A stretch of DNA of 64,000 nt. It comes from an uncultured Acidobacteriota bacterium (GTDB lineage: Bacteria > Acidobacteriota > UBA6911). The stretch covers positions 23,779-87,778 of the forward strand of contig CAYTYP010000013.1 in the NCBI GenBank assembly GCA_964441405.1, in the 5' to 3' direction. The notes beneath the pieces are model-generated. The model was not told the origin of the DNA. It made no database searches and was given only the letters and a program-made list of their open reading frames with translations. A program made the translations under genes and the position numbers. Positions 16,563 to 64,000 of the stretch are shown in pieces; positions within the stretch are counted from its first letter, which is position 1, and each line of letters starts with the position of its first letter.

Positions 16563-17142
16563 ATATTAAATAACAGCCAGTACTTTTATATCAATCCATC
16601 CTCTTAAAATTAAGAGCCTGTTATACTTGTGCCTGCGAGCCGCAGCCCGAAAGGGCGCGGCAGCGGGCGCGCATCAGCCTGCCCAGCTCTGTAACTTCGA
16701 TGATTTCAAATCGGAGTCGGAATCGGCGTTCGAAAGGATCGATTTTCGATAGCGACAGCGACCTCGATTCCGACCCCGATGAATGCCTTAGCTTTGAGAC
16801 ATCTCAACAGAAATGGTGCAAATGGGTGCAAATGGTGACAGGCACGAATTGCACCATTAATAATTATTCCGTACGTTCCGTGGCTGTATTCCGTGGCACG
16901 CTTTTACGGATTCAAGACAAAGCTTGAGTCACAGATTATTCAATAAAGTACGGCTGGTGGCGGGACTGCCCGCCGCCATGCCAAAGTGCAAACGCTATTC
17001 ATTAACGGCCCCTAAGATTCCACCTGGTGAAAAAACAGTTGAGGGCGGCTGGTGGTTAGGACTATGCTGTCAATTCTGTTAATGAGGTTTTTCATTTTCT
17101 CCTTGGATTGACGAACGTTCAAATGCGGAGAAGGAGTTGAAA

Positions 17143-49629: not shown

Positions 49630-49955
49630 TCAGCGCTCCCGCGCGAAGACGGATATTCGTTTTCTGATGGATTTCTCTTAAGCCAGCAGTATGGGGTTTA
49701 TTAATGAATTTTTCATCATAATTTGGAGTTATCTGCATGATTTAACAAATCCACTCTTGACTCCTGATCCGTCTGTTCCTCCGGAGCCGCTCTCCGGCCA
49801 ACTTCGAAATTGGGATTATTATGCGGGCTGAGCGATTAACCCGTTAGTAATAGCGCAGCGCTTCCTTGCTTTTCTTTTTCGGGCTCATTATTCTCTTACC
49901 GTTTTCCCAAATACATTATTGGAATTATATTTTCAGGGCGGTGTAATGGCTCGTT

Positions 49956-50857
49956 ATGATCAGACCACACGGCAATTATGCCATTGGGATGGGGCCTCAT
50001 AAAAACTATCGGCAATACAAAGAAACGATCGACCGGCTCACGGACGCGATCGATCGGAAGCGTATCGTAGAGATGCGGTATTACTCAGCTTCCCGCAATG
50101 TTCCCGGTGGGTGCAGTCGATAGTGCGAGTCGTCTAATGACGCATGGGTTTGGGTAAAGCGCCTGTCGGCTGGTTGCACCGATAGCGCGTCCCGTTAGGG
50201 ACGCTATGGATTAAGCCCGGCACTTTAGTGCCGGGTTTATAGGAACCCCCAAAGTTTAGTCCCGTAGGGACGGCTGAAAATATATGGTTTGATTTCCGCC
50301 GTCCCGGGACGTGTGCGGAATTGGGCAAGACGCCGATGATGTTCCCAGGAGCGACTTATGGACACTCCATTTATTGACTTGTACTTCCGATTGCACCCGT
50401 TACCGGTCGAAGAGCCGTAGGTCCTTACCGGATATGGTATGCGGCTGGAGGGCTCTATTTGATCGGCTATTGCCATAAGCGCCGGGATGTCCGGATGTTT
50501 GCAATCGAAAGAATCCGATCATTGGCAGTGACGAACAATCCATGCCAGATGCCCCTGGGGTTCGACATCGAGGCGTATGTTCAGGACGCTTTGGTGGTAA
50601 TGCGCGGCAAGCCGATCGAGGTGGAACTCGTGTTCGAGCCCAAGGCGGCGGCATGGGTAAAAGATCGCGAGTGGCATGCCAGCCAGGTTCTTTTACCGGT
50701 GAAGGGCGGCCGTTTGAAGATGCGGTTGAGTGTGGCGGACACGCCTGAACTTGTCGGCTGGATCCTGAGTTTCGGCGCCGGTGTGCGCGTAGTTTCGCCT
50801 GCACGTCTCCGGGAGCGCGTTCTCGCCGAAGCAAAAAATATTTGTGAAAAAGAATAA
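49956..50857 (+). pseudogene. WYL-domain regulator gene (WYL + C-terminal WCX-like domain) interrupted by a miniature insertion
   Basis: Frame 0 reads ...IDRKRIVEMRYYSASRNVPG up to 50108. After the insertion, frame 2 resumes with VTGRRAVGPYRIWYAAGGLYLIGYCHKRRDVRMFAIERI (WYL motif) through a C-terminal domain to the stop at 50857. Confidence 0.65.
50109..50402. mobile_element. non-autonomous miniature insertion (MITE-like) with TIRs and 5-bp TSD
   Basis: Left end GGGTGCAGTCGATAG and right end CTTCCGATTGCACCC form an imperfect TIR. Flanking CCGGT is duplicated at 50104-50108 and 50403-50407. Interior holds GTCCC..GGGAC hairpins at 50187-50204, 50260-50272 and 50300-50311, and CCCGGCACTTTAGTGCCGGG at 50216-50235. 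Confidence 0.55.
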
Positions 50858-51668: not shown

Positions 51669-54545
51669 ATGGAAGATTTCAGCAATGATCGAATCAATAA
51701 TGAATTTCTTCGGAAGGCATTGAGGCTGCGAGAAAGTGAAACTCCATTTCCTTGGCAGGAAGAACTTCTGCGACGATTCCTGCGCGGATCTATACCCCCG
51801 GCACTCGATATTCCGACTGGACTGGGCAAAACGGCTGTAATGGCAATCTGGCTTATCGCCCGTGCTGGTGGAGCGGCGCTTCCAAGGCGGCTTGTTTATA
51901 TAGTGGATCGACGAGCTGTTGTTGATCAAGCCACCGATGTGGCCATTGCGCTCCACGATCTGGTCGATAGCAATGCTGACCTGAAGACAAGGCTCAGACT
52001 GGATGATAATCGCTCGCTTCCCATCTCAACGCTTCGTGGTAAACATGTTGATAACCATGAATGGCTTGAGGATCCGTCATCACCTGCAATAATCGTCGGA
52101 ACTGTGGACATGATTGGCTCACGGCTGCTTTTCGAAGGCTATGGCGTTTCTCGGAAAATGCGCCCCTATCATGCGGGACTTCTTGGCGCCGACGCGCTCA
52201 TTGTGCTCGACGAGGCTCATCTTGTGCCGCCATTCGAGATGCTTCTCAAGTTCATTGCCGAAAGAGATGCTGATTTTAGGCCAACCGATAAATTACTGGA
52301 TAAATTGGTGCCGCGATTCAGACTGCTTTCACTTTCAGCAACTGGCCGAACTTTAGGCGAAGACTCTATTAGACTGGAAAAAGCTGATCTAAACCACGAA
52401 GAATTGAAGAAGCGCCTCAATGCTGAAAAGTGCTTATTGCTGAAACTAAACAATGAAGATACTGACAGCGCTCAAACTGAAGCTAATATAAACCAGAAGG
52501 AAAAGTGGAGCATTTCGGAAGAATTGGCAAAGGAGGCCTGGAAGATCGTTGAGAATGGCACAAACAATACCAGAATCATTATTTTTTGTAACTGCCGTAA
52601 GGATGCGAGTGATACGAAGAGCGCCGTAGAGAAACTGGCAAAGGGCGATAAAAAGGCTGGCAAGGGGCCCGTCTTAATCCATTCAGAGCTTTTCGTCGGT
52701 GGACGCAGGATTTATGAGCGCGAAGAGGCCAAGATGCGCCTTGTAAAATTTGGTTTTATTGCAGGGAGTGAACAGACTCCTGATCGACCAACATTTCTCT
52801 TCGCGACATCAGCAGCAGAAGTTGGCGTGGATCTCGACGCCGATCATATGGTATGCGATCTTGTTGCCTGGGAGCGCATGGTTCAGCGGCTTGGTAGAGT
52901 CAATCGAAGAGGTAACTGCACTGCAAATGTTACCGTTGTCATGGAGCCAGAACCAAAACCTAAAAATAAAAAAGAAAAGGATGTAATAAATAAGAAGGCT
53001 AGCGGGAAGTCCTTGGAGGAGAAAGAAATCAAAATCTTAGATGCTTTTGAAGCTCGAGTCCGTGAGTGGAAAAACTATCAGAAGCCTTTCAGACATCTGC
53101 CGCTGATAAGTAATGGTGCATTTGATGCAAGCCCAGGAGCTCTTTCTAATCTAAAACAGCGTGCCGAATCAGACAAAGAGCTTGGGGAAATTTTGAGAAA
53201 TGCAACCACGCCCACCCCTCTGCGGCCTGTCCTCACTCGCGCACTTGTCGATGCATGGTCGATGACTTCTCTCAAGGAACACACCGGACGTCCAATGATC
53301 GATCCGTGGTTGCGTGGATGGAAAAAAGATGAGCTTCATACAAATATTGTATGGCGTGCGCACCTGCCATTACGGTCATCTTCAAAGCCGCCGGCAAAGA
53401 AAGAGATCGAGCAATTCTTTGAGGCTGCTCCACCACATGCCAGTGAAGTATTAGAGGAGGAAACGTATCGAGTCGTCCAGTGGCTTGAAAAGCGGGCTGT
53501 TGCGGTGCTGAAGAATGCAACTCATAACCCGAGCACGACTGTACGACCACTCCTACCCTCCTCCGATGAAGTGGTAGCTTTCATTCTCTCTCGTTCTGGT
53601 GATTTTCAGGACCACCTTAGATTCAAGGATCTCATAACTACCGATAATGGCGATTCTCAAAGCAAGCAACAAATGCGGCTCCGCCAGACGCTGGGCGGAG
53701 CAATTCTTGTGGTCGATTCAATTCTTGGTGGCTTAAAAGACGGGTTGCTTGATGAAAAGGAAGATTCTTTGCCCAAAACCACCGATGATGGTCAAGAGTG
53801 GCTCGGGGAGCATGTCGCTGGCTTCCGTATCCGTAGTGTTCGTGCTGATGAATCCCTCGGATCAGATCCATCGTGGCGAGAACGATTTCGCTTTGCAACC
53901 AAACTCACGGAGGAGGGAGAACCAAGGCTATGGCTCATCGTCGAAAAGTGGCGGCATGAAGCAACAACCGAAGATGATCGATCCTCGTCTCATCCGCAAA
54001 TTTTGGAGGAGCATCAATCATGGGCAGAGGATCGGGCCCGTAATCTTGCACAAAAACTTCAATTGGATGAGCCTTATCTCAAAATGCTTGCAATCGTGGC
54101 TCGTCTGCACGACGAAGGCAAGCGCTTTCGCCGGTGGCAGCGAGGCTTCAATGCATCTAAAGATGGGATATATGCGAAAACAAAGGGGCCGATAAACTAC
54201 GCCTTATTAGATGGCTACCGACATGAGTTAGGTTCTCTTCTTATCGCTGAGAATGACGAAAAGATTAATTCTCTTTCTGAGGAATTACGCGAGCTCGCAC
54301 TACATCTAATCGCTGCCCATCATGGTTTTGCGCGCCCCGTCATTGGCACTCACGGCTGCGAGGATGCCCCGCCATCCGTTGTGGAAACGCGGACTTGTGA
54401 AGTGGCGCTGCGTTTTTCACGCCTTCAGCGGCGTTGGGGCCCATGGGGACTTGCATGGTGGGAAACGCTCCTTCGGGCGGTTGACCAGCAGGCTTCTCGC
54501 GAAAATGATGCCGCTGAATTGGTGATACAAAAGGAGGAGTTCTGA
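51669..54545 (+). CDS. cas3: Cas3 helicase-nuclease with C-terminal HD domain (type I-G/I-U architecture)
   Basis: N-terminal SF2 helicase motifs (DIPTGLGKTAV Walker A, LIVLDEAHL motif II) and C-terminal HD-nuclease motifs (ARLHDEGKRFRRWQ, IAAHHGFARP). 958 aa. GGAGG RBS. Confidence 0.85.
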   Translation: MEDFSNDRINNEFLRKALRLRESETPFPWQEELLRRFLRGSIPPALDIPTGLGKTAVMAIWLIARAGGAALPRRLVYIVDRRAVVDQATDVAIALHDLVDSNADLKTRLRLDDNRSLPISTLRGKHVDNHEWLEDPSSPAIIVGTVDMIGSRLLFEGYGVSRKMRPYHAGLLGADALIVLDEAHLVPPFEMLLKFIAERDADFRPTDKLLDKLVPRFRLLSLSATGRTLGEDSIRLEKADLNHEELKKRLNAEKCLLLKLNNEDTDSAQTEANINQKEKWSISEELAKEAWKIVENGTNNTRIIIFCNCRKDASDTKSAVEKLAKGDKKAGKGPVLIHSELFVGGRRIYEREEAKMRLVKFGFIAGSEQTPDRPTFLFATSAAEVGVDLDADHMVCDLVAWERMVQRLGRVNRRGNCTANVTVVMEPEPKPKNKKEKDVINKKASGKSLEEKEIKILDAFEARVREWKNYQKPFRHLPLISNGAFDASPGALSNLKQRAESDKELGEILRNATTPTPLRPVLTRALVDAWSMTSLKEHTGRPMIDPWLRGWKKDELHTNIVWRAHLPLRSSSKPPAKKEIEQFFEAAPPHASEVLEEETYRVVQWLEKRAVAVLKNATHNPSTTVRPLLPSSDEVVAFILSRSGDFQDHLRFKDLITTDNGDSQSKQQMRLRQTLGGAILVVDSILGGLKDGLLDEKEDSLPKTTDDGQEWLGEHVAGFRIRSVRADESLGSDPSWRERFRFATKLTEEGEPRLWLIVEKWRHEATTEDDRSSSHPQILEEHQSWAEDRARNLAQKLQLDEPYLKMLAIVARLHDEGKRFRRWQRGFNASKDGIYAKTKGPINYALLDGYRHELGSLLIAENDEKINSLSEELRELALHLIAAHHGFARPVIGTHGCEDAPPSVVETRTCEVALRFSRLQRRWGPWGLAWWETLLRAVDQQASRENDAAELVIQKEEF

Positions 54546-55462
54546 TGACAGAAGCATCCATTCCGGTTGATTTATTCAATCCCGGGCAGGTGTTCGCCTG
54601 CCTTGGTTTTCTTGAGGCGGCCGAAATGCTGCTCGGCAATGCGGAGGGCGGCTTCGATTGGAGCATTCATAAGGATATTTTCTTTCGCCTCTGCGCTAAG
54701 GGTGCGAAAAATCCTTTTTCAGTCGTTCTACAGTTCCTTACAACCGCAGATATCATTCCACATAGTTTTACTCAGTGTACTTTGAATTCGATGTTTGACA
54801 GTAATGGAGCCCCTATCTCTGACATCCAAATAGATTGTTCGGGCACATTCCCTTGTCCGGATGTGGACACAATGACATTACCAATCCACCTTGTTGGATT
54901 ACTGAACGATGAAAAATATTTGATTAATTTTAGCCACTGGGCTGATGGATCGAGTCGCAATACTTTTAAACTCTATTCCGGCAACCGATCCGCAGCTGAT
55001 ATTTCGCGCGCCATGCTATTGGGAACTCAAAAGAAGTCAAAGAAGAAACAAGGCGAGATGGAAACGTACGGCCTTCGATCCTTATGGAAGGAGCATCGAT
55101 CAGAGCTGGAAAAAAACCCATTCAATGTTCTAACACCGCTTGGGGGGAGTTTTAATTTTGATCCAAGAGGTGCATGGACAGGAATAGACGCCGGGTATTC
55201 TCCAAATGATCAGAAACATGCCATGGCAGCCTCGCCAGTTGTCGAGATCCTGGCGGCTCTCGGGCTTGAGCACGCACGGCCGGATGAATTCAAGACTCGC
55301 CAGGTGCGATATGCAGCCTGGAACTCAATAATTCCGCCTTTTCTCGCGAGAGCTGCTCTATCCGGTGCGCTCTTAAACATTCCGCTAAGGAAGTTTCAAT
55401 TCACCCTTTTTCTTTCGGGGAAGAATAAGGTCATCACATTTGCAAAGGAGGAAATACAATGA
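54545..55462 (+). CDS. Cascade-like effector subunit, 305 aa, in the large-subunit (Cas8u) position; family unassigned
   Basis: ATGA overlap with the cas3 stop, so translationally coupled. No motif could be assigned by eye. Confidence 0.45.
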   Translation: MTEASIPVDLFNPGQVFACLGFLEAAEMLLGNAEGGFDWSIHKDIFFRLCAKGAKNPFSVVLQFLTTADIIPHSFTQCTLNSMFDSNGAPISDIQIDCSGTFPCPDVDTMTLPIHLVGLLNDEKYLINFSHWADGSSRNTFKLYSGNRSAADISRAMLLGTQKKSKKKQGEMETYGLRSLWKEHRSELEKNPFNVLTPLGGSFNFDPRGAWTGIDAGYSPNDQKHAMAASPVVEILAALGLEHARPDEFKTRQVRYAAWNSIIPPFLARAALSGALLNIPLRKFQFTLFLSGKNKVITFAKEEIQ

Positions 55463-56697
55463 CGGAAGTAACGGAAGTAATCACTGAGGAGGTTTTGAAT
55501 AATTGGGCAACGGATGAAAAGGGCCCTGTGGCCCTTCACATGAAACAGAGACTCTTGCCTGTAGAAGTGTTAGATGAAGAGACTGGCATAATATTCCCTC
55601 CCACGTATGCCGACATCGGATACAACATCGATACGCTTTTTGACGGCACGAGGGTTGCTACTATCGACAGTATCGGTTCGCAAGCCAACCGACTTGAGCC
55701 GAACTTCAAATCCAATTCACAGAACAAGGAGGAGTGGCTAGTTCCGCAAATTGAGATCGTACTGCGTTCGGAACCGTGCGGAGAATGTGAGGCGTGCAAG
55801 GAAGTCAAACGCGTAGGTGGAAAGAGCAAAGCAAGCGGCTGTATAAAGCCAAAGCAGGTGAAACGTTCGATCTTCGATCTTGCGCACCGCGCTGCCGATG
55901 CCGTTGTCCAGTCTTCCCCTGGACTTAATGGGCTCATCAAAGATGCATTCAAGGCGCTTCAAGAAGGCGATGCCCTGCCTCTTTGTTCATTAGCACCGAC
56001 ATCGCTGGTTTTCGGTGTGTGGGATTCGCGCGGAGGAAGCGGCGAAAAGCGCCCTCGCTTGGTTCGCTCTATTATTCGGGCCTGGGACGTAGAACCGCTG
56101 CATGCTGCAGCACAGTTTAATTCTGTCTGGAAAGCTCTCGATGAAGAGCAAAAAGAGGATTTGAAAAAGGAGGCGACGGCAAAGAAGGTCGAGTTGTCGG
56201 AGAAAGGCTTCGCGGATGCTCCGGCGGTTTTTCGCAAAACCAAGATTCAGCTATATCGCGAGGGTACGCCGAATCCAGAAGCCCGTGTTCTTGGTGGCAT
56301 TTTCGTCAAGGGGCGAATTGAGCGCGACGTTACCGTGAATCTTGTTGCGCTCCGTGGCCTTTACGGTAAATATGACATGACAAATGCAATTCGCAAATAT
56401 CTTCTCGGTCTTTCTCTACTTGCCGCGACGGCAGATATCGACTTGTTCCTTCGTGAGGGCTGCCACCTGCGCTATGCGGCAGAAGATAATTGGTTCGAAG
56501 TGCCTCGCAGGGGCAACCCAACGCTATTGAAATTCCCTACTGATTCGAAATTCTTAATGAATTATATAATGGAAGCTTCAAAAGGATTCAGATCAGCATG
56601 GCCGGAGAAGTTGGAATATGTATTTAATTTAAGTGAGGCAAAAAGGCTGCTTGCGAAAAATACAAATGATCATGAAGAAGCAGTTGGAGGTGCATGA
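55459..56697 (+). CDS. Cascade-like effector subunit, 412 aa, probable Cas7 (Csb1-like)
   Basis: ATGA overlap with the upstream gene. The size and position match the Cas7 slot. Glycine-containing loop LGGIFVKGRIERDV. Confidence 0.45.
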   Translation: MTEVTEVITEEVLNNWATDEKGPVALHMKQRLLPVEVLDEETGIIFPPTYADIGYNIDTLFDGTRVATIDSIGSQANRLEPNFKSNSQNKEEWLVPQIEIVLRSEPCGECEACKEVKRVGGKSKASGCIKPKQVKRSIFDLAHRAADAVVQSSPGLNGLIKDAFKALQEGDALPLCSLAPTSLVFGVWDSRGGSGEKRPRLVRSIIRAWDVEPLHAAAQFNSVWKALDEEQKEDLKKEATAKKVELSEKGFADAPAVFRKTKIQLYREGTPNPEARVLGGIFVKGRIERDVTVNLVALRGLYGKYDMTNAIRKYLLGLSLLAATADIDLFLREGCHLRYAAEDNWFEVPRRGNPTLLKFPTDSKFLMNYIMEASKGFRSAWPEKLEYVFNLSEAKRLLAKNTNDHEEAVGGA

Positions 56698-59105
56698 TGT
56701 CCAGTGCACTTGCAATCCATGTGCGCTTTCATGATGGGCGCTATCATGGCGACAGCGACTGGCCTCCGTGTCCCGCCCGGCTTTTTCAGGCACTTGTCAG
56801 CGGCGCCGGGCTCAGTGGCCCGATCAGCGAGAAGTTTTCTAATGCGCTCAAATGGCTGGAGAGCATTCCGCCCCCACTGATCGGTGCGCCGCAAGCGCAG
56901 CGCGGCCAGCGCGTCATGTTTTATATGCCGAACAATGATATGGATATAGTGGGCGGTGATCCGCTACGAATTGCGGAAATTCGCACCGCAAAAAAGTATT
57001 TCCACCCCTATTTATTCGATTTAAATATTCCGTTCCTCTTCCTCTGGCAAAATATAACTGATGAACACACCCATTATGCCAACGAGATTTGCGAGGCTGC
57101 GTACCATCTTTATCAACTCGGTCGTGGCATCGATATGGCATGGGCGTGGGCCGATTTGCTCAACATGGCTAAGGTCGATGAACTACTTGCGAGCTATCCT
57201 GGGCAAATACATCGTCCGTCAACCGGAATCGGCGAAAATCATACAAATACACTTTTATGTCCGCATCCGGGGTCATTGGAGTCCATTTGCAAACGCTACC
57301 AGGCCTATAGTCACAGGTTTATGATTGCGAGGAAAGGCAAGACGGTAAAGCAAACTTTCCAGAAGGCGCCACAAGCGAGCTTCCGGTCCGTTTCATACGA
57401 CAATCCGCCAACACGCTATATTTATGAGCTTCGCAGGTCACCGGATCCGTTGTTGTTTTTTCCGTGGCCATTATCAGAAGTATCGAAGCTTATTGTTTGC
57501 TTGCGGGATGGAGCAGTGGATCGGCTCAAGACGGCGTTGCCTGACCAAGCTGCTCAAATTGATCGTGTGCTTGTAGGGCGAAAGTCTGATGGCACAAATG
57601 CCGGTTCGACAGCCGAACGGGTAAGAATTATTCCTCTACCATCTGTCGGACATCCTCACGCTGATCATGCAATTCGGCGGATTCTGGTTGAAGTGCCCGC
57701 TGCCTGTCCGCTGAGAGCAGATGACGTATCATGGGCATTTTCGGCACTTGTTGAGCCTGTTGATATCGCAACAGGCGAAATATATCCACTCGTTCTGATA
57801 TCCACTGCTGATGAAAATATACTGCGCCACTTTGGCATGGGAGAAAACTCCGAAGCTTCAGTATGGCGCACGATTACGCCAATTGCTGTTCCAGAGGTAG
57901 CCGGCAGGAGAAGAATCGAGCCAACCATACAGCTCGCCCAAGCCAAATCGGGAGCGGAACGTGTTTACGAGCAACATATCGCCGCAGCGTCCATAATCCA
58001 GGCGTTGAGACATGCGGAGATTCGTGAGCAACCCGTGGCAGTCAAGGTTCAGCGAGAACCTTTTGAGGGTAATGGCGAACGGGTGGAAGCCTTTGCTAAC
58101 AGAACAAGATTTTATTCCCGGAGCCTCTGGCATGCCGAGATCACCTTTTTAAAGCCTCTCTCGGGTCCTCTGGTGGTCGGTGACGGTCGCTTCTTCGGCC
58201 TGGGTGTTATGGTTCCAAACGCTTTGAAAAGGACGCATGTTGCCCAATTTGTACTGGATTCTACGGTGTTGCCGCAAATCACTGAGGCGCTGCCGGTGGC
58301 GGAGTCTGCCCGCCGGATATTGATGGGCATAGGCGGCCGTATGTTCTCCGCTCCTGATGGATCGCGGGGGCGTTCTGATGTTTTTTCAGGTAAAAATGAA
58401 AATGGAAGACCGTTGGAAGGGCATGGCCATGCTTATTACCTTCCAACGGATGAGGACCAGGATGGCTATATTGACCATTTGACGATCATTGCAGTTGGTG
58501 GGTTCAACGAGCAGGATCTCAAGGTCCTGGATGCGTTGCGAGAATTAAAAAGCAAAGAGCGGGAAGCATCCGGCCATCCGCTTCGAACTTTACTGATAGG
58601 TATAGGAAGGTTGGACGAATACCGCCCCTACTTGATGCAGCCATCAAGAATATGGCGTTCTGCAACACCATTCATCGCTTCACGCTTTCTTAAAAAGCGA
58701 GGCACAAAACGCGATCCTGTTGAATTCTGGAATAATCCACATGATTTTCTCATTGCTGTTTTGAGGGAGGAAATGGCTAGGTTTATTGCCCGGCGGTTTG
58801 AATTGAAGGATCTAAATCCGGATAAAATCAAGATCAGGCCACTTTTAGATGAAAACAGTGTTTTTCGAATCGGCCGGCAAAATCTTCGACCGATCCAGTT
58901 TAAAAGGTTTCGTCAGAAGAAGGGGGATGATGGAGGCAATCGTCCGGCAGGATCATTTGAAATTGATTTTGGCCGCGATGTTAGCGGTCCTATCGCTCTC
59001 GGCCACTCCTCCCATTTCGGCTTGGGACTGTTTGTTCCGGTAAATGAGCAAAATGAATCTGGCGATGGAACTGTTATTAATGATCCTATTATTGGTATGA
59101 TATGA
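56694..59105 (+). CDS. enlarged Cas5-Cas6 fusion (Csb2-like), 803 aa
   Basis: N-terminus RFHDGRYHGDSDWPPCPARLFQALV resembles the Cas5u/Csb2 family N-terminal signature. Two RAMP-type glycine-rich loops: LVVGDGRFFGLGVMVP mid-protein and ALGHSSHFGLGLFVP near the C-terminus. ATGATG overlap with the upstream gene. Confidence 0.55.
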   Translation: MMSSALAIHVRFHDGRYHGDSDWPPCPARLFQALVSGAGLSGPISEKFSNALKWLESIPPPLIGAPQAQRGQRVMFYMPNNDMDIVGGDPLRIAEIRTAKKYFHPYLFDLNIPFLFLWQNITDEHTHYANEICEAAYHLYQLGRGIDMAWAWADLLNMAKVDELLASYPGQIHRPSTGIGENHTNTLLCPHPGSLESICKRYQAYSHRFMIARKGKTVKQTFQKAPQASFRSVSYDNPPTRYIYELRRSPDPLLFFPWPLSEVSKLIVCLRDGAVDRLKTALPDQAAQIDRVLVGRKSDGTNAGSTAERVRIIPLPSVGHPHADHAIRRILVEVPAACPLRADDVSWAFSALVEPVDIATGEIYPLVLISTADENILRHFGMGENSEASVWRTITPIAVPEVAGRRRIEPTIQLAQAKSGAERVYEQHIAAASIIQALRHAEIREQPVAVKVQREPFEGNGERVEAFANRTRFYSRSLWHAEITFLKPLSGPLVVGDGRFFGLGVMVPNALKRTHVAQFVLDSTVLPQITEALPVAESARRILMGIGGRMFSAPDGSRGRSDVFSGKNENGRPLEGHGHAYYLPTDEDQDGYIDHLTIIAVGGFNEQDLKVLDALRELKSKEREASGHPLRTLLIGIGRLDEYRPYLMQPSRIWRSATPFIASRFLKKRGTKRDPVEFWNNPHDFLIAVLREEMARFIARRFELKDLNPDKIKIRPLLDENSVFRIGRQNLRPIQFKRFRQKKGDDGGNRPAGSFEIDFGRDVSGPIALGHSSHFGLGLFVPVNEQNESGDGTVINDPIIGMI

Positions 59106-59124
59106 GCGTAGAATAATAATTGAA

Positions 59125-59481
59125 TTGTCCGGAACGATAATGAAAGAGATTAAAGAGCTTCAAGAAAAAGAACGGATGGCCCTTGAAGAACTGAAATTGA
59201 GGATCAGCTCGGAATTGCCGGAACCATCTTGCCGGCTCACTCTTTTCGGATCAAAGGCAAGAGGCGATGCTGAGCCCGATTCCGATATTGATGTTCTGGT
59301 TGAATTGGACGCACTCCATGTTTCTCCGGTTTATAAGCGGAAACTGCGGCGCATCGCAGGAGAGTTGTCCATAAAATTCCGCGTTTTGCTTTGTCTCCTC
59401 ATCATTGATCGGAGCACGCGTGAAGAGAAAGGCGATTACGCCATTTTGCAGAATATTCGTGAAGAGGGAATTTCCGTATGA
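59125..59481 (+). CDS. minimal nucleotidyltransferase (MNT/MntA-type antitoxin)
   Basis: LFGSKARGDAEPDSDIDVLV (GSxxxG...DxD) motif. 118 aa. Confidence 0.75.
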   Translation: MSGTIMKEIKELQEKERMALEELKLRISSELPEPSCRLTLFGSKARGDAEPDSDIDVLVELDALHVSPVYKRKLRRIAGELSIKFRVLLCLLIIDRSTREEKGDYAILQNIREEGISV

Positions 59482-59876
59482 GTGGGAAGGAAATTCGCGA
59501 ATTGCTCCAAAAAGCCGACCGAAGCCTTAAGGCTGCTGAAATATTACTGCAACAAGGCTATTGTGACTTCTCCATATCACGCGCCTACTATGCAATGTTT
59601 TATGCCGCGCAGGCTATTCTTCTTACCAAAGATGTTCGTCGAGTAAAACATTCCGGTATTATCGCCGCATTTAATGAATTGTTTGTGCATTCAGGTCAAT
59701 TGCCCCATGATCTCTTTATTTCATTGCGCGATGCTTTTGAGGATCGAGCCGAAGGCGACTACGGTTTAAATGTAATTTCTGAAGAACAAGCTGTCTCGTG
59801 TCTTTTGGAAGCACGTAAATTTGTTGCTGAAATAGACAAGAAATTGGGAGCATGGTCGGAATCCCATGACCATTAG
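59478..59876 (+). CDS. HEPN-domain protein (HepT-type toxin partner)
   Basis: ATGA overlap with the MNT gene. SRAYYAMFYAAQAILL HEPN core helix. 132 aa. Confidence 0.65.
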   Translation: MSGKEIRELLQKADRSLKAAEILLQQGYCDFSISRAYYAMFYAAQAILLTKDVRRVKHSGIIAAFNELFVHSGQLPHDLFISLRDAFEDRAEGDYGLNVISEEQAVSCLLEARKFVAEIDKKLGAWSESHDH

Positions 59877-59906
59877 TCATTTCGGTGGTTTGTTAAGAAC
59901 GATAGA

Positions 59907-60410
59907 TCATTTCATTCTTAATTTTATATCGATCAGGATTGTTGCATCGGCAAGGTGTTGTGTTTCGGAGTAGACGACTATGATGCCTTTGATTTTGCCG
60001 GAGGATTTACCACCGGTGAATTGCTGCTTGAGGTCCTCTGATAGAGCGCTGGACAGGAGCAGTTCTTTTGCTTTATCGGTGAAATAAAAAGTCGTCCGGA
60101 AAGAACCTTTAATAACCGAAAGCCAGAAGATGGTTTTCTTCTTTAGAGTGACTTTCAAAAGCCAGCCTTTCACGTCACGGTAATAGCGCCACTCTCTTGT
60201 AAAATCTGGATGATCGGCGTCGAGATGTTTGAAAAGCGAATTCCATAGCGGTTTCGTTTTCCCGATATGCGCGAAAATAATCTCATCCGTAGGGCGTTCG
60301 TTCGGGTTGGATAAAGCAATCGGTTCCATAAACCATCTCCGGTCGGAAAATTCAAATAATACACTGATTCCATGAGCTATAAAAAAAAGAATCTTTGAAT
60401 ATGAGCGCAC
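59907..60410 (-). CDS. hypothetical protein embedded in the cas locus (opposite strand)
   Basis: 167-aa ORF (the likely start at MEPIALSNPNERP gives about 140 aa). No family recognised by eye. Confidence 0.4.
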   Translation of the reverse strand: MRSYSKILFFIAHGISVLFEFSDRRWFMEPIALSNPNERPTDEIIFAHIGKTKPLWNSLFKHLDADHPDFTREWRYYRDVKGWLLKVTLKKKTIFWLSVIKGSFRTTFYFTDKAKELLLSSALSEDLKQQFTGGKSSGKIKGIIVVYSETQHLADATILIDIKLRMK

Positions 60411-60496
60411 TATTCAATGGGAACCTCTACGCTTTCTTCCAACCAATGATACAGTTGATGAATGAAAGATGAAGTGCGGCCGATATGTAATATCGT

Positions 60497-60787
60497 ATGC
60501 GTACGAGCTATCTGGTTTGCTACGATATTGCCGACGACAAAAGGCTGCGAAGCGTATTCAAAAAAATGCGCAGCTACGGCGATCACCTTCAGTTCTCCGT
60601 TTTCGAGTGCCAGTTGTCTCCGGCCGATCTCGTACGTTGCCGCACGGAACTGGATGCGATCATCAATCATAGGGAAGACCAGGTGCTTTTTGTGAATATC
60701 GGGCCGTCCGAGGGGCGAGGCGATCGGGTGATTACCGCCTTGGGCAAGCCCTACATCCATATAGACAGCCCTTGCATCGTGGTGTGA
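60497..60787 (+). CDS. cas2: Cas2
   Basis: 96 aa. YLVCYDIADDKRLRSVFKKMRSYGDHLQFSVFEC is the Cas2 N-terminal signature. Confidence 0.85.
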   Translation: MRTSYLVCYDIADDKRLRSVFKKMRSYGDHLQFSVFECQLSPADLVRCRTELDAIINHREDQVLFVNIGPSEGRGDRVITALGKPYIHIDSPCIVV

Positions 60788-62562
60788 AAGTGGAAACGAC
60801 TCAGGAAATTTCTAAGGAAGAAGGCAGAGAGCCTGTCCCGGAATACCTGCCCGCCCGTATGCTGAATGAGTTTGTCTATTGTCCGCGGCTTTTTTTCTAT
60901 GAATGGGTAGATGGAGTTTTCGAGGAAAGCGCGGATACGCTTGAAGGAAAAGCCCAGCATAAGAGGGTGGATGAGACGGTTTCATCCCTCCCTGCTCCCG
61001 AAGAACTTGAAGATGAGTCCATGCGTTCGCGGTCCGTAAGCATGTCCAGCGACCGCTATGGAGTGATTGCCCGTATGGACCTGGTGGAGGTTGAAAACGG
61101 AACCGTCACGCCCGTGGATTATAAGCATGGCGATCCCCGGGAGACGAAAACAGGCATCGAACTCTGGCCTGCGGACAAATTTCAATTGGCGACTCAGGGA
61201 TTGATTCTTAAAGACAACGGATACCGGTGCGATGAAGGATTAGTCTATTACTTCAAGACAAAACAAAGAGTACGCGTTCAATTAGATGAATTCCTGATTG
61301 CGGAAACTCTTCAGTTGATCAAGGATGCGCGGACAACAGCCGCCTCCGGACAGATCCCGACTCCATTGACTGATTCGCCAAAATGCCAGGGGTGTTCTCT
61401 TGTAGGCATATGCCTGCCGGATGAAACTTCGGAACTTTCGGCCGCGAGGACGGTTGAGGAGGCCTCCCAGCTTTCATTTTTTGAAGAAAATGAAACGGTA
61501 AAACATGTTTCGTCTTCCGTTCGAAGGCTGATCACGCCCAGGGACGATCTGCGCCCTGTTTATATCAATACACATGGCATGCGCATTGGTAAATCAGGCG
61601 AAGTCCTGCAGATTCGCGACAAGGATGCACTGAAACAGGAAATCAGGATTCATGAGATGTCGCAACTCAATATTATGGGAAATGTCCAGGTGTCCACCCA
61701 GGCGATACAAAGCCTTTGCCAGGAAGACATTCCTATCTGTTATTTTTCTCAGGGCGGCTGGTTCTACGGCATTACGGCCGGAATGAATGTCAAAAATGTC
61801 TTTTTAAGAAAAATTCAATATCGTCTTTCCGATGAAACCTGGTTCGCGCTGTCGTTCGCCAGACAACTCATCTCCGGAAAAATCAAAAATCAACGGACAA
61901 TGCTGCAAAGAAATCATATCGAGCCGAAAGCCATTACTTTACAGCAGATGAAAACGATGGCCGAAAGAGCCGAGCAGGCAGGAAGCCTTGAAGAATTGCT
62001 GGGGATCGAAGGGAACGCGGCAAGATTATATTTCGGCGATTTTAACGGCATGATCAAAGTGGAAGAGGGAGACGAAACCGGCAAACAGTTTGCATTCGAT
62101 TTTTCAAAGAGAAACCGGCGCCCTCCGAGGGATGCGGTGAACGCCATGCTTTCTTATTGCTATAGCCTTCTGGCCAAGGACTGCACGATCGCTTGTTATG
62201 CCGTCGGCTTTGATCCGATGATGGGCTTTTACCATCAACCCCGCTTTGGGAGACCATCCCTTGCTCTTGACCTGATGGAACCGTTTCGCCCCCTTATCGG
62301 CGATTCCGTGACGCTCAGCGCTATCAATAATCGCATGGTGCAGAGTAGGGATTTTGTGGAAGCAGGGCCTTCGGTTTCACTTACACCCTCAGGGCGAAAA
62401 GGTCTGTTGCATGCTTATGAATTACGCATGGATGCACTTGTCACTCACCCGATCTTTGATTATCGCGTAAGTTATCGTAGACTGTTGGAGATTCAGGCAA
62501 GGCTGCTTGCTCGATATTTGAATAATGAGATTGCCGAATATCCGGTATTTGTAACTCGATGA
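60772..62562 (+). CDS. cas1: Cas4-Cas1 fusion protein
   Basis: N-terminal Cas4 RecB-nuclease/Fe-S part (LNEFVYCPRLFFYEW ... CQGCSLVGIC). C-terminal Cas1 motifs (LGIEGNAARLYF, VNAMLSYCYSLL, ALDLMEPFRPLIGD). The exact start is ambiguous (TTG 60772, GTG 60784/60790 or ATG 60859). Confidence 0.85.
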   Translation: MHRGVKVETTQEISKEEGREPVPEYLPARMLNEFVYCPRLFFYEWVDGVFEESADTLEGKAQHKRVDETVSSLPAPEELEDESMRSRSVSMSSDRYGVIARMDLVEVENGTVTPVDYKHGDPRETKTGIELWPADKFQLATQGLILKDNGYRCDEGLVYYFKTKQRVRVQLDEFLIAETLQLIKDARTTAASGQIPTPLTDSPKCQGCSLVGICLPDETSELSAARTVEEASQLSFFEENETVKHVSSSVRRLITPRDDLRPVYINTHGMRIGKSGEVLQIRDKDALKQEIRIHEMSQLNIMGNVQVSTQAIQSLCQEDIPICYFSQGGWFYGITAGMNVKNVFLRKIQYRLSDETWFALSFARQLISGKIKNQRTMLQRNHIEPKAITLQQMKTMAERAEQAGSLEELLGIEGNAARLYFGDFNGMIKVEEGDETGKQFAFDFSKRNRRPPRDAVNAMLSYCYSLLAKDCTIACYAVGFDPMMGFYHQPRFGRPSLALDLMEPFRPLIGDSVTLSAINNRMVQSRDFVEAGPSVSLTPSGRKGLLHAYELRMDALVTHPIFDYRVSYRRLLEIQARLLARYLNNEIAEYPVFVTR

Positions 62563-62747
62563 TTGATGCTGCGAGCGGTTAGGTAATGAAGAAAAAGCAG
62601 GAGGCGTTCGCATCCGGGTTTAGCTATAAAAACAAAGCACTTACGTTGATCGGCGATTCTTACTAGAAATATATTATGTTGTTATTAGGCAAGCGTTCGA
62701 AAGGCACAACCCAGATCTTTGAAAATATGAGTTTTATGCGAGAAGCT
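62563..62747 (+). promoter_or_regulatory. CRISPR leader
   Basis: 185-bp AT-rich non-coding segment between the cas4-cas1 stop and the first repeat. Confidence 0.6.
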
Positions 62748-64000
62748 ATTTCCGCGATTGAAAGATCGCGGCCCCATTGAAGCGACCAAACCATAGCGCA
62801 CCCGGCAACCAGGATCGAAATTTCCGCGATTGAAAGATCGCGGCCCCATTGAAGCGTGCAAATTTGCACAAGGTCGGTTCTGGCGCCCTGATTTCCGCGA
62901 TTGAAAGATCGCGGCCCCATTGAAGCTCTGCGGGATGCACGAATACCAGCGAGAGCCGCCCGATTTCCGCGATTGAAAGATCGCGGCCCCATTGAAGCCA
63001 GGTTATAGGGTAGAGGTCTATCCAATTCGGAGCTATTTCCGCGATTGAAAGATCGCGGCCCCATTGAAGCACCATTTCATCCTGGCCGTGCGTGATGTTT
63101 TCAGGCATATTTCCGCGATTGAAAGATCGCGGCCCCATTGAAGCTTGATGTGTCATTTCGCGTCTCCTTTTTCGATTTTGATTTCCGCGATTGAAAGATC
63201 GCGGCCCCATTGAAGCTGATATAACGGCAACGTCAATTGGTTGTGTTCAACCACATCCAGATTTCCGCGATTGAAAGATCGCGGCCCCATTGAAGCATTG
63301 GAACGGATATCACAAAGACCATGCTCGATAGATTTCCGCGATTGAAAGATCGCGGCCCCATTGAAGCATGTAGGCCCGGACGGTGAAGGGCGTTCCAGGC
63401 GTGCATTTCCGCGATTGAAAGATCGCGGCCCCATTGAAGCTTTGGAATTTTCGGTGGATTTTGATTCAATGGGTCGGATTTCCGCGATTGAAAGATCGCG
63501 GCCCCATTGAAGCTCGTAGTGCTGTCGTTCCTGTCTCTTGTGCTGATCAATTTCCGCGATTGAAAGATCGCGGCCCCATTGAAGCATTCCGTCAATCGTT
63601 CCTGTTGGCGTCTCGGTGTATGATTTCCGCGATTGAAAGATCGCGGCCCCATTGAAGCTCCCCGCTACCATTCGCGGACATTTTCATCCGTTAATTTCCG
63701 CGATTGAAAGATCGCGGCCCCATTGAAGCCGCCCGTAACAAGCGGGTCGGTCTGCGCCTTGATTAATTTCCGCGATTGAAAGATCGCGGCCCCATTGAAG
63801 CCCGTGTGGATTTCCAGGGGCGGCTCCTCATCTTCCCAATTTCCGCGATTGAAAGATCGCGGCCCCATTGAAGCTATAAAACTGACGGCTTTGTACAAGC
63901 AGGCGTTGCGTGAATTTCCGCGATTGAAAGATCGCGGCCCCATTGAAGCACTGCTCCGATAATCGGTTTAATACTCTCTACTTCCAATTTCCGCGATTGA
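62748..64000 (+). CRISPR. CRISPR array, 36-bp repeat ATTTCCGCGATTGAAAGATCGCGGCCCCATTGAAGC; 17 complete repeats plus a truncated 18th at the window edge
   Basis: Repeats start at 62748, 62820, 62891, 62963, 63035, 63109, 63181, 63261, 63332, 63405, 63478, 63550, 63623, 63694, 63766, 63839, 63914 and 63987 (truncated). Spacers are 35-39 nt, with one of 44 nt. The repeat has an internal 7-bp palindrome CCGCGAT/ATCGCGG. Confidence 0.95.

Follow-up and report, generated by a model that had tools for sequence, protein, structure and literature searches.

The WYL regulator gene and the type I-G locus

At 51669-63875, the window (the whole 64-kb stretch of DNA that was analysed) carries a CRISPR-Cas locus of type I-G (formerly I-U), which is apparently intact. 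It comprises a cas3 gene (51669-54545) whose product has an HD domain at the C-terminus, a 305-aa ORF without any Pfam match, the genes of a GSU0053 (csx17) protein and a GSU0054 (csb1/2) protein, and a cas4-cas1 fusion, before which a nucleotidyltransferase/HEPN pair and a DUF3788 gene are inserted. The CRISPR array (62748-63875) has the 36-37-nt repeat ATTTCCGCGATTGAAAGATCGCGGCCCCATTGAAGC. The named homologues of a conserved protein encoded in the window come almost all from Acidobacteriota MAGs (68-79% identity), and the host is probably an acidobacterium.

Directly upstream of this locus, a WYL-type regulator gene lies in two parts on the forward strand. The 5′ part (49946-50108), delimited by tblastn with homologues and by Pfam, carries residues 1-11, a deletion, and the first half of the WYL domain. 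The 3′ part (50399-50857) carries the second half of the WYL domain and the WCX domain. Between the two lies a MITE of 290 bp (50109-50398; 54% GC) without a transposase gene, and the ORFs inside it do not exceed 79 aa. When 299 bp (50109-50407) are removed, a single ORF of 200 aa is restored, reading …RKRIVEMRYYSASRNVPG up to the junction and RRAVGPYRIWYAAGGLYLIGYCH… after it. The Pfam WYL domain (profile positions 1-69 of 70) then runs across the junction at residues 23-91 and is followed by WCX. This rejoined regulator has 1067 homologues, the best of which is 82% identical. Most of the homologues listed are 325-339 aa long, and those inspected are unbroken at the insertion site.

The sequence-only reading had proposed looking for an empty site in relatives, and such a site was found. 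The DNA of the closest homologue aligns to positions 49981-50101 of the window and resumes at 50399. Extension of the left block as far as the junction produces a 9-bp overlap with the right one. The empty site reads NVTGRR in the homologues, and the DNA of the closest one is AAT GTA ACG GGG CGC.

The insertion truncates the regulator, since the added 299 bp are not divisible by three and the reading frame meets a TAG after the left junction. It also explains why the WYL gene is called in fragments by annotation. The gene has a second and independent lesion (49946-49990), in which residues 1-11 (MARYDQTTRQL) are joined to approximately residue 135 in another frame. About 123 aa, the wHTH domain among them, are deleted internally, and the frame shifts near 49978. 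Thus, the host gene is a pseudogene regardless of the MITE. WYL repressors of defence systems are known, and loss of the WYL gene could de-repress the cas operon if the regulator acted as such a repressor here. Altered expression of the type I-G system would be expected from the decay of a WYL-type regulator beside it.

Ends and target-site duplication of the element

It was found that positions 50109-50131 pair with 50376-50398 as an inverted repeat of 23 nt with 78% complementarity, which is longer than previously given. The strings in question, GGGTGCAGTCGATAG… from 50109 and …CTTCCGATTGCACCC up to 50398, were indeed present at both ends of the element and are unique in the window. Taken as 24-nt sequences, the left terminal inverted repeat (TIR; GGGTGCAGTCGATAGTGCGAGTCG, 50109-50132, forward strand) and the right TIR (50375-50398, reverse strand; reverse complement GGGTGCAATCGGAAGTACAAGTCA) each have three mismatches to the consensus GGGTGCAATCGAAAGTGCGAGTCA, which bounds ISKra4-type insertion sequences (ISs) as well as MITEs. 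The right TIR has only two mismatches to a variant with G at position 12 (G12) that is found on two transposase-bearing loci (L016 and L022). Within the 64 kb, the two ends of the MITE are the only sites with seven or fewer mismatches to the 24-nt consensus.

Immediately outside these ends, 9 bp on either side form a target-site duplication (TSD). The left copy, GTTCCCGGT (50100-50108), has one substitution relative to the right copy, GTTACCGGT (50399-50407), and a match of 8/9 or better has a null probability of 2.6e-4. The right copy encodes V-T-G, as the homologues do. The element had been described as running from 50109 to 50402 (294 bp) between CCGGT copies. Both copies of CCGGT are there (50104-50108 and 50403-50407), but they are only the 3′ part of the 9-bp duplication, and the last four nucleotides assigned to the element, GTTA, fall within that duplication. 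Since the right TIR stops at 50398, the next 9 bp match the left flank, and the alignment with the homologue resumes at 50399, the element is 290 bp in length with a 9-bp TSD.

An element of 294 bp with a 5-bp TSD would have pointed to other parents, such as Tn3-derived TIMEs or ISs of the IS1380 or IS701 type. The perfection of CCGGT as a direct repeat speaks for this version. However, it leaves GTTA unexplained and takes no account of the 8/9 agreement of the flanking 9 bp, of the point at which the homologue alignment picks up, or of the codons GTT ACC GGT that give the V-T-G of the homologues. Moreover, elements with the same ends show 9-bp duplications and ISKra4-family transposases, as described below. 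I consider the 5-bp version highly improbable.

Each TIR has three mismatches and the TSD has one, for which reason the window copy is probably old and possibly immobile. The description as a non-autonomous MITE without a transposase, bounded by TIRs and a TSD, was borne out by the in silico excision, the empty site, and the 24-nt ends shared with other elements.

Two further resemblances to the TIRs had been pointed out. One was an internal inverted copy of the TIR core at 50171-50189, from which a composite or duplicated structure had been suggested. This segment consists only of the 7-mer TTGCACC and, next to it, a direct repeat of CGATAGTGCG at 9/10. A search with the 24-nt TIR consensus that allowed up to seven mismatches did not find it, and the composite structure is unsupported. 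The other was a palindrome at 16814-16846, regarded as a relative of the element. What it has in common is only the hexamer GGTGCA/TGCACC (the window has 13 copies of GGTGCA and 12 of TGCACC), and it too fails the consensus search at up to seven mismatches. The intergenic sequence there, GGTGCAAATG GGTGCAAATG GTGACAGGCACGAATTGCACC (16814-16852), is a short tandem repeat with the inverted heptamer TTGCACC. The site is unconnected with the MITE ends; possibly, a protein binds there.

Elements with the same ends and their transposases

It had been proposed that other copies be sought as a check on the element. The outcome was mixed: the TIR/TSD pattern recurs at many sites, but no second copy of the interior came to light. 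Within the window, blastn with word sizes of 7 and 11 revealed no copy. Nor did the interior match any of the fetched loci or the transposase-bearing elements, and plasmid blastn gave no match to the element. An exact look-up of its two internal ORFs found neither on record, its called ORFs have no homologues among about 15 billion proteins, and when the element was translated in six frames as a pseudo-protein query, none of 5.8 billion clusters matched it at E values up to 1.

A genome collection (GTDB representatives, among which the genome of the window is absent) was scanned for the 11 terminal nucleotides of each TIR at a MITE-like spacing. Ten loci were obtained. Six of them are chance matches without any extension of the TIRs and with TSDs of 1-2/9, and four are real MITE-like elements. 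An element of Schlesneria (L009) has a perfect 9-bp duplication. Another, in Sedimenticola hydrogenitrophicus (L010), has an 8/9 duplication and TIRs closely resembling those of the window MITE, and a third (L008) also has an 8/9 duplication. The fourth, in a Planctomycetaceae MAG (L005, positions 2577-2854), is 278 bp long with the same 11 nt at both ends and TIRs matching at 33/35, without a 9-bp duplication; it may represent a related MITE lineage whose ends differ beyond position 11. None of the four has any interior sequence in common with the window MITE.

A metagenome scan was made with the 23-nt TIR consensus of the window copy as the query. It yielded 33 loci (L013-L045), where about one was expected by my estimate. 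Across these loci, a 24-nt end, GGGTGCAATCG(A/G)AAGTGCGAGTCA, is almost invariant. Paired ends define two size classes, namely MITEs of 164-364 bp and six full-length elements of 1507-1524 bp. Duplications of 9/9 were found for one full IS (L034), for L021/L044 and L041, and for the Schlesneria element, and duplications of 8/9 for the window MITE, the Sedimenticola element, L025, and L008. About half of the paired-end elements in the other loci have no recognisable TSD.

Elements whose transposases are only about 60% identical share this end, as do MITEs whose interiors are unrelated. Since identity drops to nothing immediately inside it, this terminus is, by sequence comparison, unusually strongly conserved.

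These 24-nt ends delimit the elements of 1507-1524 bp in L015, L020, L032, L034, L036, and L037, which are 78-91% identical to one another. L016 and L022, which are truncated by contig ends, each have one such end beside a transposase gene. The 382-aa ORFs match NCBIfam NF033572 (ISKra4 family transposase, cutoff 205 bits). Two of them score 212.3 and 206.7 bits, whereas the third, that of L020, stays under the cutoff with 193.6 bits. Matches of the 382-aa ORFs to ISLre2 and ISH6 are much weaker. The transposases of L016 and L022, which carry the G12 TIR variant, are 58-61% identical to those of the full-length elements, and their loci have a GC content of 51-52%, compared with 50% for the window.

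In all complete copies that were checked, the transposase is split into orfA, of about 108 aa (listed with 133 aa for L020), and the 382-aa orfB, which overlaps it in the -1 frame; in L034 the pair lies at 1133-2490 on the reverse strand. The overlap site GGAAGGAAAAAAAAC (A AAA AAA) is conserved in L016, L020, L034, and L036, that is, even between lineages that are 58% identical. When the two ORFs are fused by a -1 shift, the score against NF033572 rises to 217.5 bits and the match widens from positions 55-422 to 24-422.

Of the complete ISKra4-type copies, only that of L034 has a recognisable 9-bp TSD. The flanks of the other five (L015, L020, L032, L036, and L037) agree at 1-5/9; the missing TSDs may be due to recombination between copies or to adjacent deletions.

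The ISKra4 family corresponds to the p-MULT 4 Mutator-like transposases, with the groups ISAzba1, ISMich2, and ISKra4 (Guérillot et al. 2014, PMC3942029). In the Mutator-like elements of prokaryotes, ISKra4 among them, the inverted repeats measure 18-39 bp, their terminal C is conserved, and the direct repeats are of 8 or 9 bp (PMC3942029). The window MITE agrees with this, having inverted repeats of 23-24 bp that end in ...GCACCC and a direct repeat of 9 bp. Its ends are identical or nearly so to those of the NF033572-encoding elements, but it is 290 bp long instead of about 1.5 kb, has no transposase, and has an unrelated interior. In the ISMich2 group, the transposase is encoded by two ORFs and restored by a -1 frameshift (PMC3942029), and the putative parents have the same layout. 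Members of the ISMich2 group in ISfinder are 1250-1400 bp long with 8-bp direct repeats. The putative parents, with a length of about 1520 bp and 9-bp direct repeats, differ from this and can be placed in the group only tentatively.

Since the same 24-nt ends are found on transposase-encoding elements and are accompanied by 9-bp duplications, ISKra4 is the parent family of the MITE. The reading that I favour, with a probability of roughly 0.88, is that the MITE was inserted into the WYL/WCX gene by an ISKra4-family transposase, generating the 9-bp duplication. Such a Mutator-like DDE enzyme would recognise the approximately 24-nt ends GGGTGCAATCG(A/G)AAGTGCGAGTCA and would cut the target GTTACCGGT, inside the coding region of the WYL domain, with a stagger of 9 bp, which would leave the duplication. 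Mobilisation would have been in trans, most plausibly by a parent IS resembling those of L016/L022. This type is proposed because the G12 TIR variant best fits the right end, together with the GC content of 51-52% and the two-ORF transposase with a -1 frameshift. No ISKra4-family transposase was found in the 64-kb window. Circular transposition intermediates have been proposed for the Mutator-like superfamily (PMC3942029), and a circular copy-out/paste-in intermediate may accordingly be envisaged for the MITE.

A full ISKra4 IS might instead have been inserted at this site and have lost its interior later, so that the 290 bp never moved as a MITE. The TIRs and the TSD of such a relic would appear identical, only one copy is known, and the host gene underwent another deletion nearby. 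On the other hand, neither blastn nor tblastn shows any similarity between the interior and the eight transposase-bearing copies, even in their subterminal regions. The size and the hairpin-rich design also fit the other MITEs of the class (164-364 bp). I therefore regard formation in place as unlikely, and transposition of the MITE as such is preferred.

Like other bacterial MITEs (Correia/NEMIS, RUP, Nezha, and IS630- or IS256-derived elements), the window MITE is small and non-coding, has TIRs and a TSD, and is predicted to be strongly structured. It likewise sits in a gene and was presumably mobilised in trans. It differs from those named in having ISKra4-family ends and a single known copy. 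It is an ordinary bacterial MITE, now attributable to the ISKra4 family. In the literature, no published description of a MITE was found for the ISKra4 family, and none of a diversity of ISKra4 MITEs with shared ends. Thus, the window MITE is a small addition rather than a surprise. The wider point is that ISKra4-family (Mutator-like) ISs gave rise to diverse MITEs with a near-invariant 24-nt end and unrelated interiors. In practice, the TIR signature GGGTGCAATCGRAAGTGCGAGTCA with a 9-bp TSD can be used for masking such elements.

Hairpins of the interior and the Acido-Lenti-1 motif

The four perfect palindromes noticed in the sequence-only reading are present, starting at 50187, 50216, 50259, and 50300, and each is unique in the window. 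The first two are the hairpins GCGTCCC-GTTA-GGGACGC (50187-50204) and CCCGGCAC-TTTA-GTGCCGGG (50216-50235). The others, GTCCCGTAGGGAC (50259-50271) and CGTCCCGGGACG (50300-50311), lie where a longer alternative stem can form between 50267-50279 and 50293-50305. The density of perfect hairpins is far beyond chance (P of about 5e-4; 0.05% of 2000 shuffles reach it). Among 440 windows of the same size, it is equalled only by the CRISPR array, apart from two overlapping windows on the element itself. RNA folding, which had been suggested as a check, gave -146.6 kcal/mol (z = -9.0) for the plus strand and -126.6 kcal/mol (z = -7.4) for the minus strand. A promoter and terminator scan found neither within the element.

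Most MITEs with the same class of TIR have interiors that are strongly structured on both strands, and that of L029 is a near-perfect nested hairpin (z = -15.9). The GTCCC/GGGAC hairpins thus suit the MITE class. For this class, an interior rich in hairpins is the usual cargo, and a function of its own is not required.

The two-hairpin module at 50188-50235 resembles, on the reverse strand, the Acido-Lenti-1 motif, which is catalogued in Rfam (RF01687) as an sRNA with no assigned role. The match scores 30.4 bits, below the gathering threshold of 37, with E = 6e-5 in a low-threshold Rfam search of 701 nt. At the gathering threshold, Rfam gave no match in the whole window. The module shares with Acido-Lenti-1 the two hairpins and a GCU-type linker, as well as a host that is probably an acidobacterium, but its score stays under gathering. 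Acido-Lenti-1 was found above gathering in two 293-bp MITEs of the same TIR class, namely L029 (219-264, 49.5 bits) and L031 (1022-1067, 48 bits), on the forward strand in both. When the window MITE is aligned with these two, nothing but the ends aligns.

Could the element be a structured RNA rather than a transposed DNA? It would then be a self-splicing intron or a free-standing sRNA gene of the Acido-Lenti-1 type, with the terminal pairing acting as an RNA stem. The very stable fold, stronger on the sense strand, is in keeping with such an RNA, as is the fact that, of the five mismatches in the TIR pairing, three form G-U pairs on the plus strand. The sub-threshold match to Acido-Lenti-1 might also be cited, but it sits on the antisense strand, and neither a group I or II intron nor any other Rfam family was found at threshold. 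The 9-bp target duplication is a scar of transposition and not a feature of introns, the ends are common to elements with DDE transposases, and the host gene is a pseudogene anyway. There is only a very slight chance that the structured-RNA explanation is right, and insertion of a MITE by an ISKra4-family transposase is retained.

An intron was also considered separately as a candidate and was rejected: the group I and group II covariance models gave no match even at E values up to 10, and the 9-bp duplication is present.

Acido-Lenti-1 has 89 published instances and is multi-copy (Weinberg et al. 2010, PMC2864571). The published instances often lie in tandem units of about 200 nt in Lentisphaera. 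The TIR 11-mers were not found in these instances with 200 nt of flanking sequence, and thus Acido-Lenti-1 is not synonymous with the MITE class. These results suggest that, in at least some instances, Acido-Lenti-1 is part of repeated DNA, which is mobile here. An orphan Rfam motif is thereby tied to mobile repeats.

It is tempting to go further and to speculate that Acido-Lenti-1, at least in Acidobacteriota, is a hairpin module spread by ISKra4-type MITEs and not a free-standing RNA gene, and that the MITE and the wHTH deletion together knocked out a WYL repressor of the type I-G operon. This combined proposal is tentative, and I consider it rather unlikely. If it were true, the CRISPR-Cas system would be expressed constitutively, and the regulation of a defence system would have been rewired by a mobile element.

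A search with neighbouring proteins for sequence beyond the window gave only short Logan contigs of the same organism. A minor observation concerns one sequence of this organism in the independent Logan assembly of SRR8925769 (L002). Its positions 1-156 correspond to 50243-50398 of the window, so that it breaks off within the element, a few nucleotides past the hairpin at 50216-50235. This break gives a weak hint that a part of the element is repeated in the community, or that the hairpin hampered the assembly.
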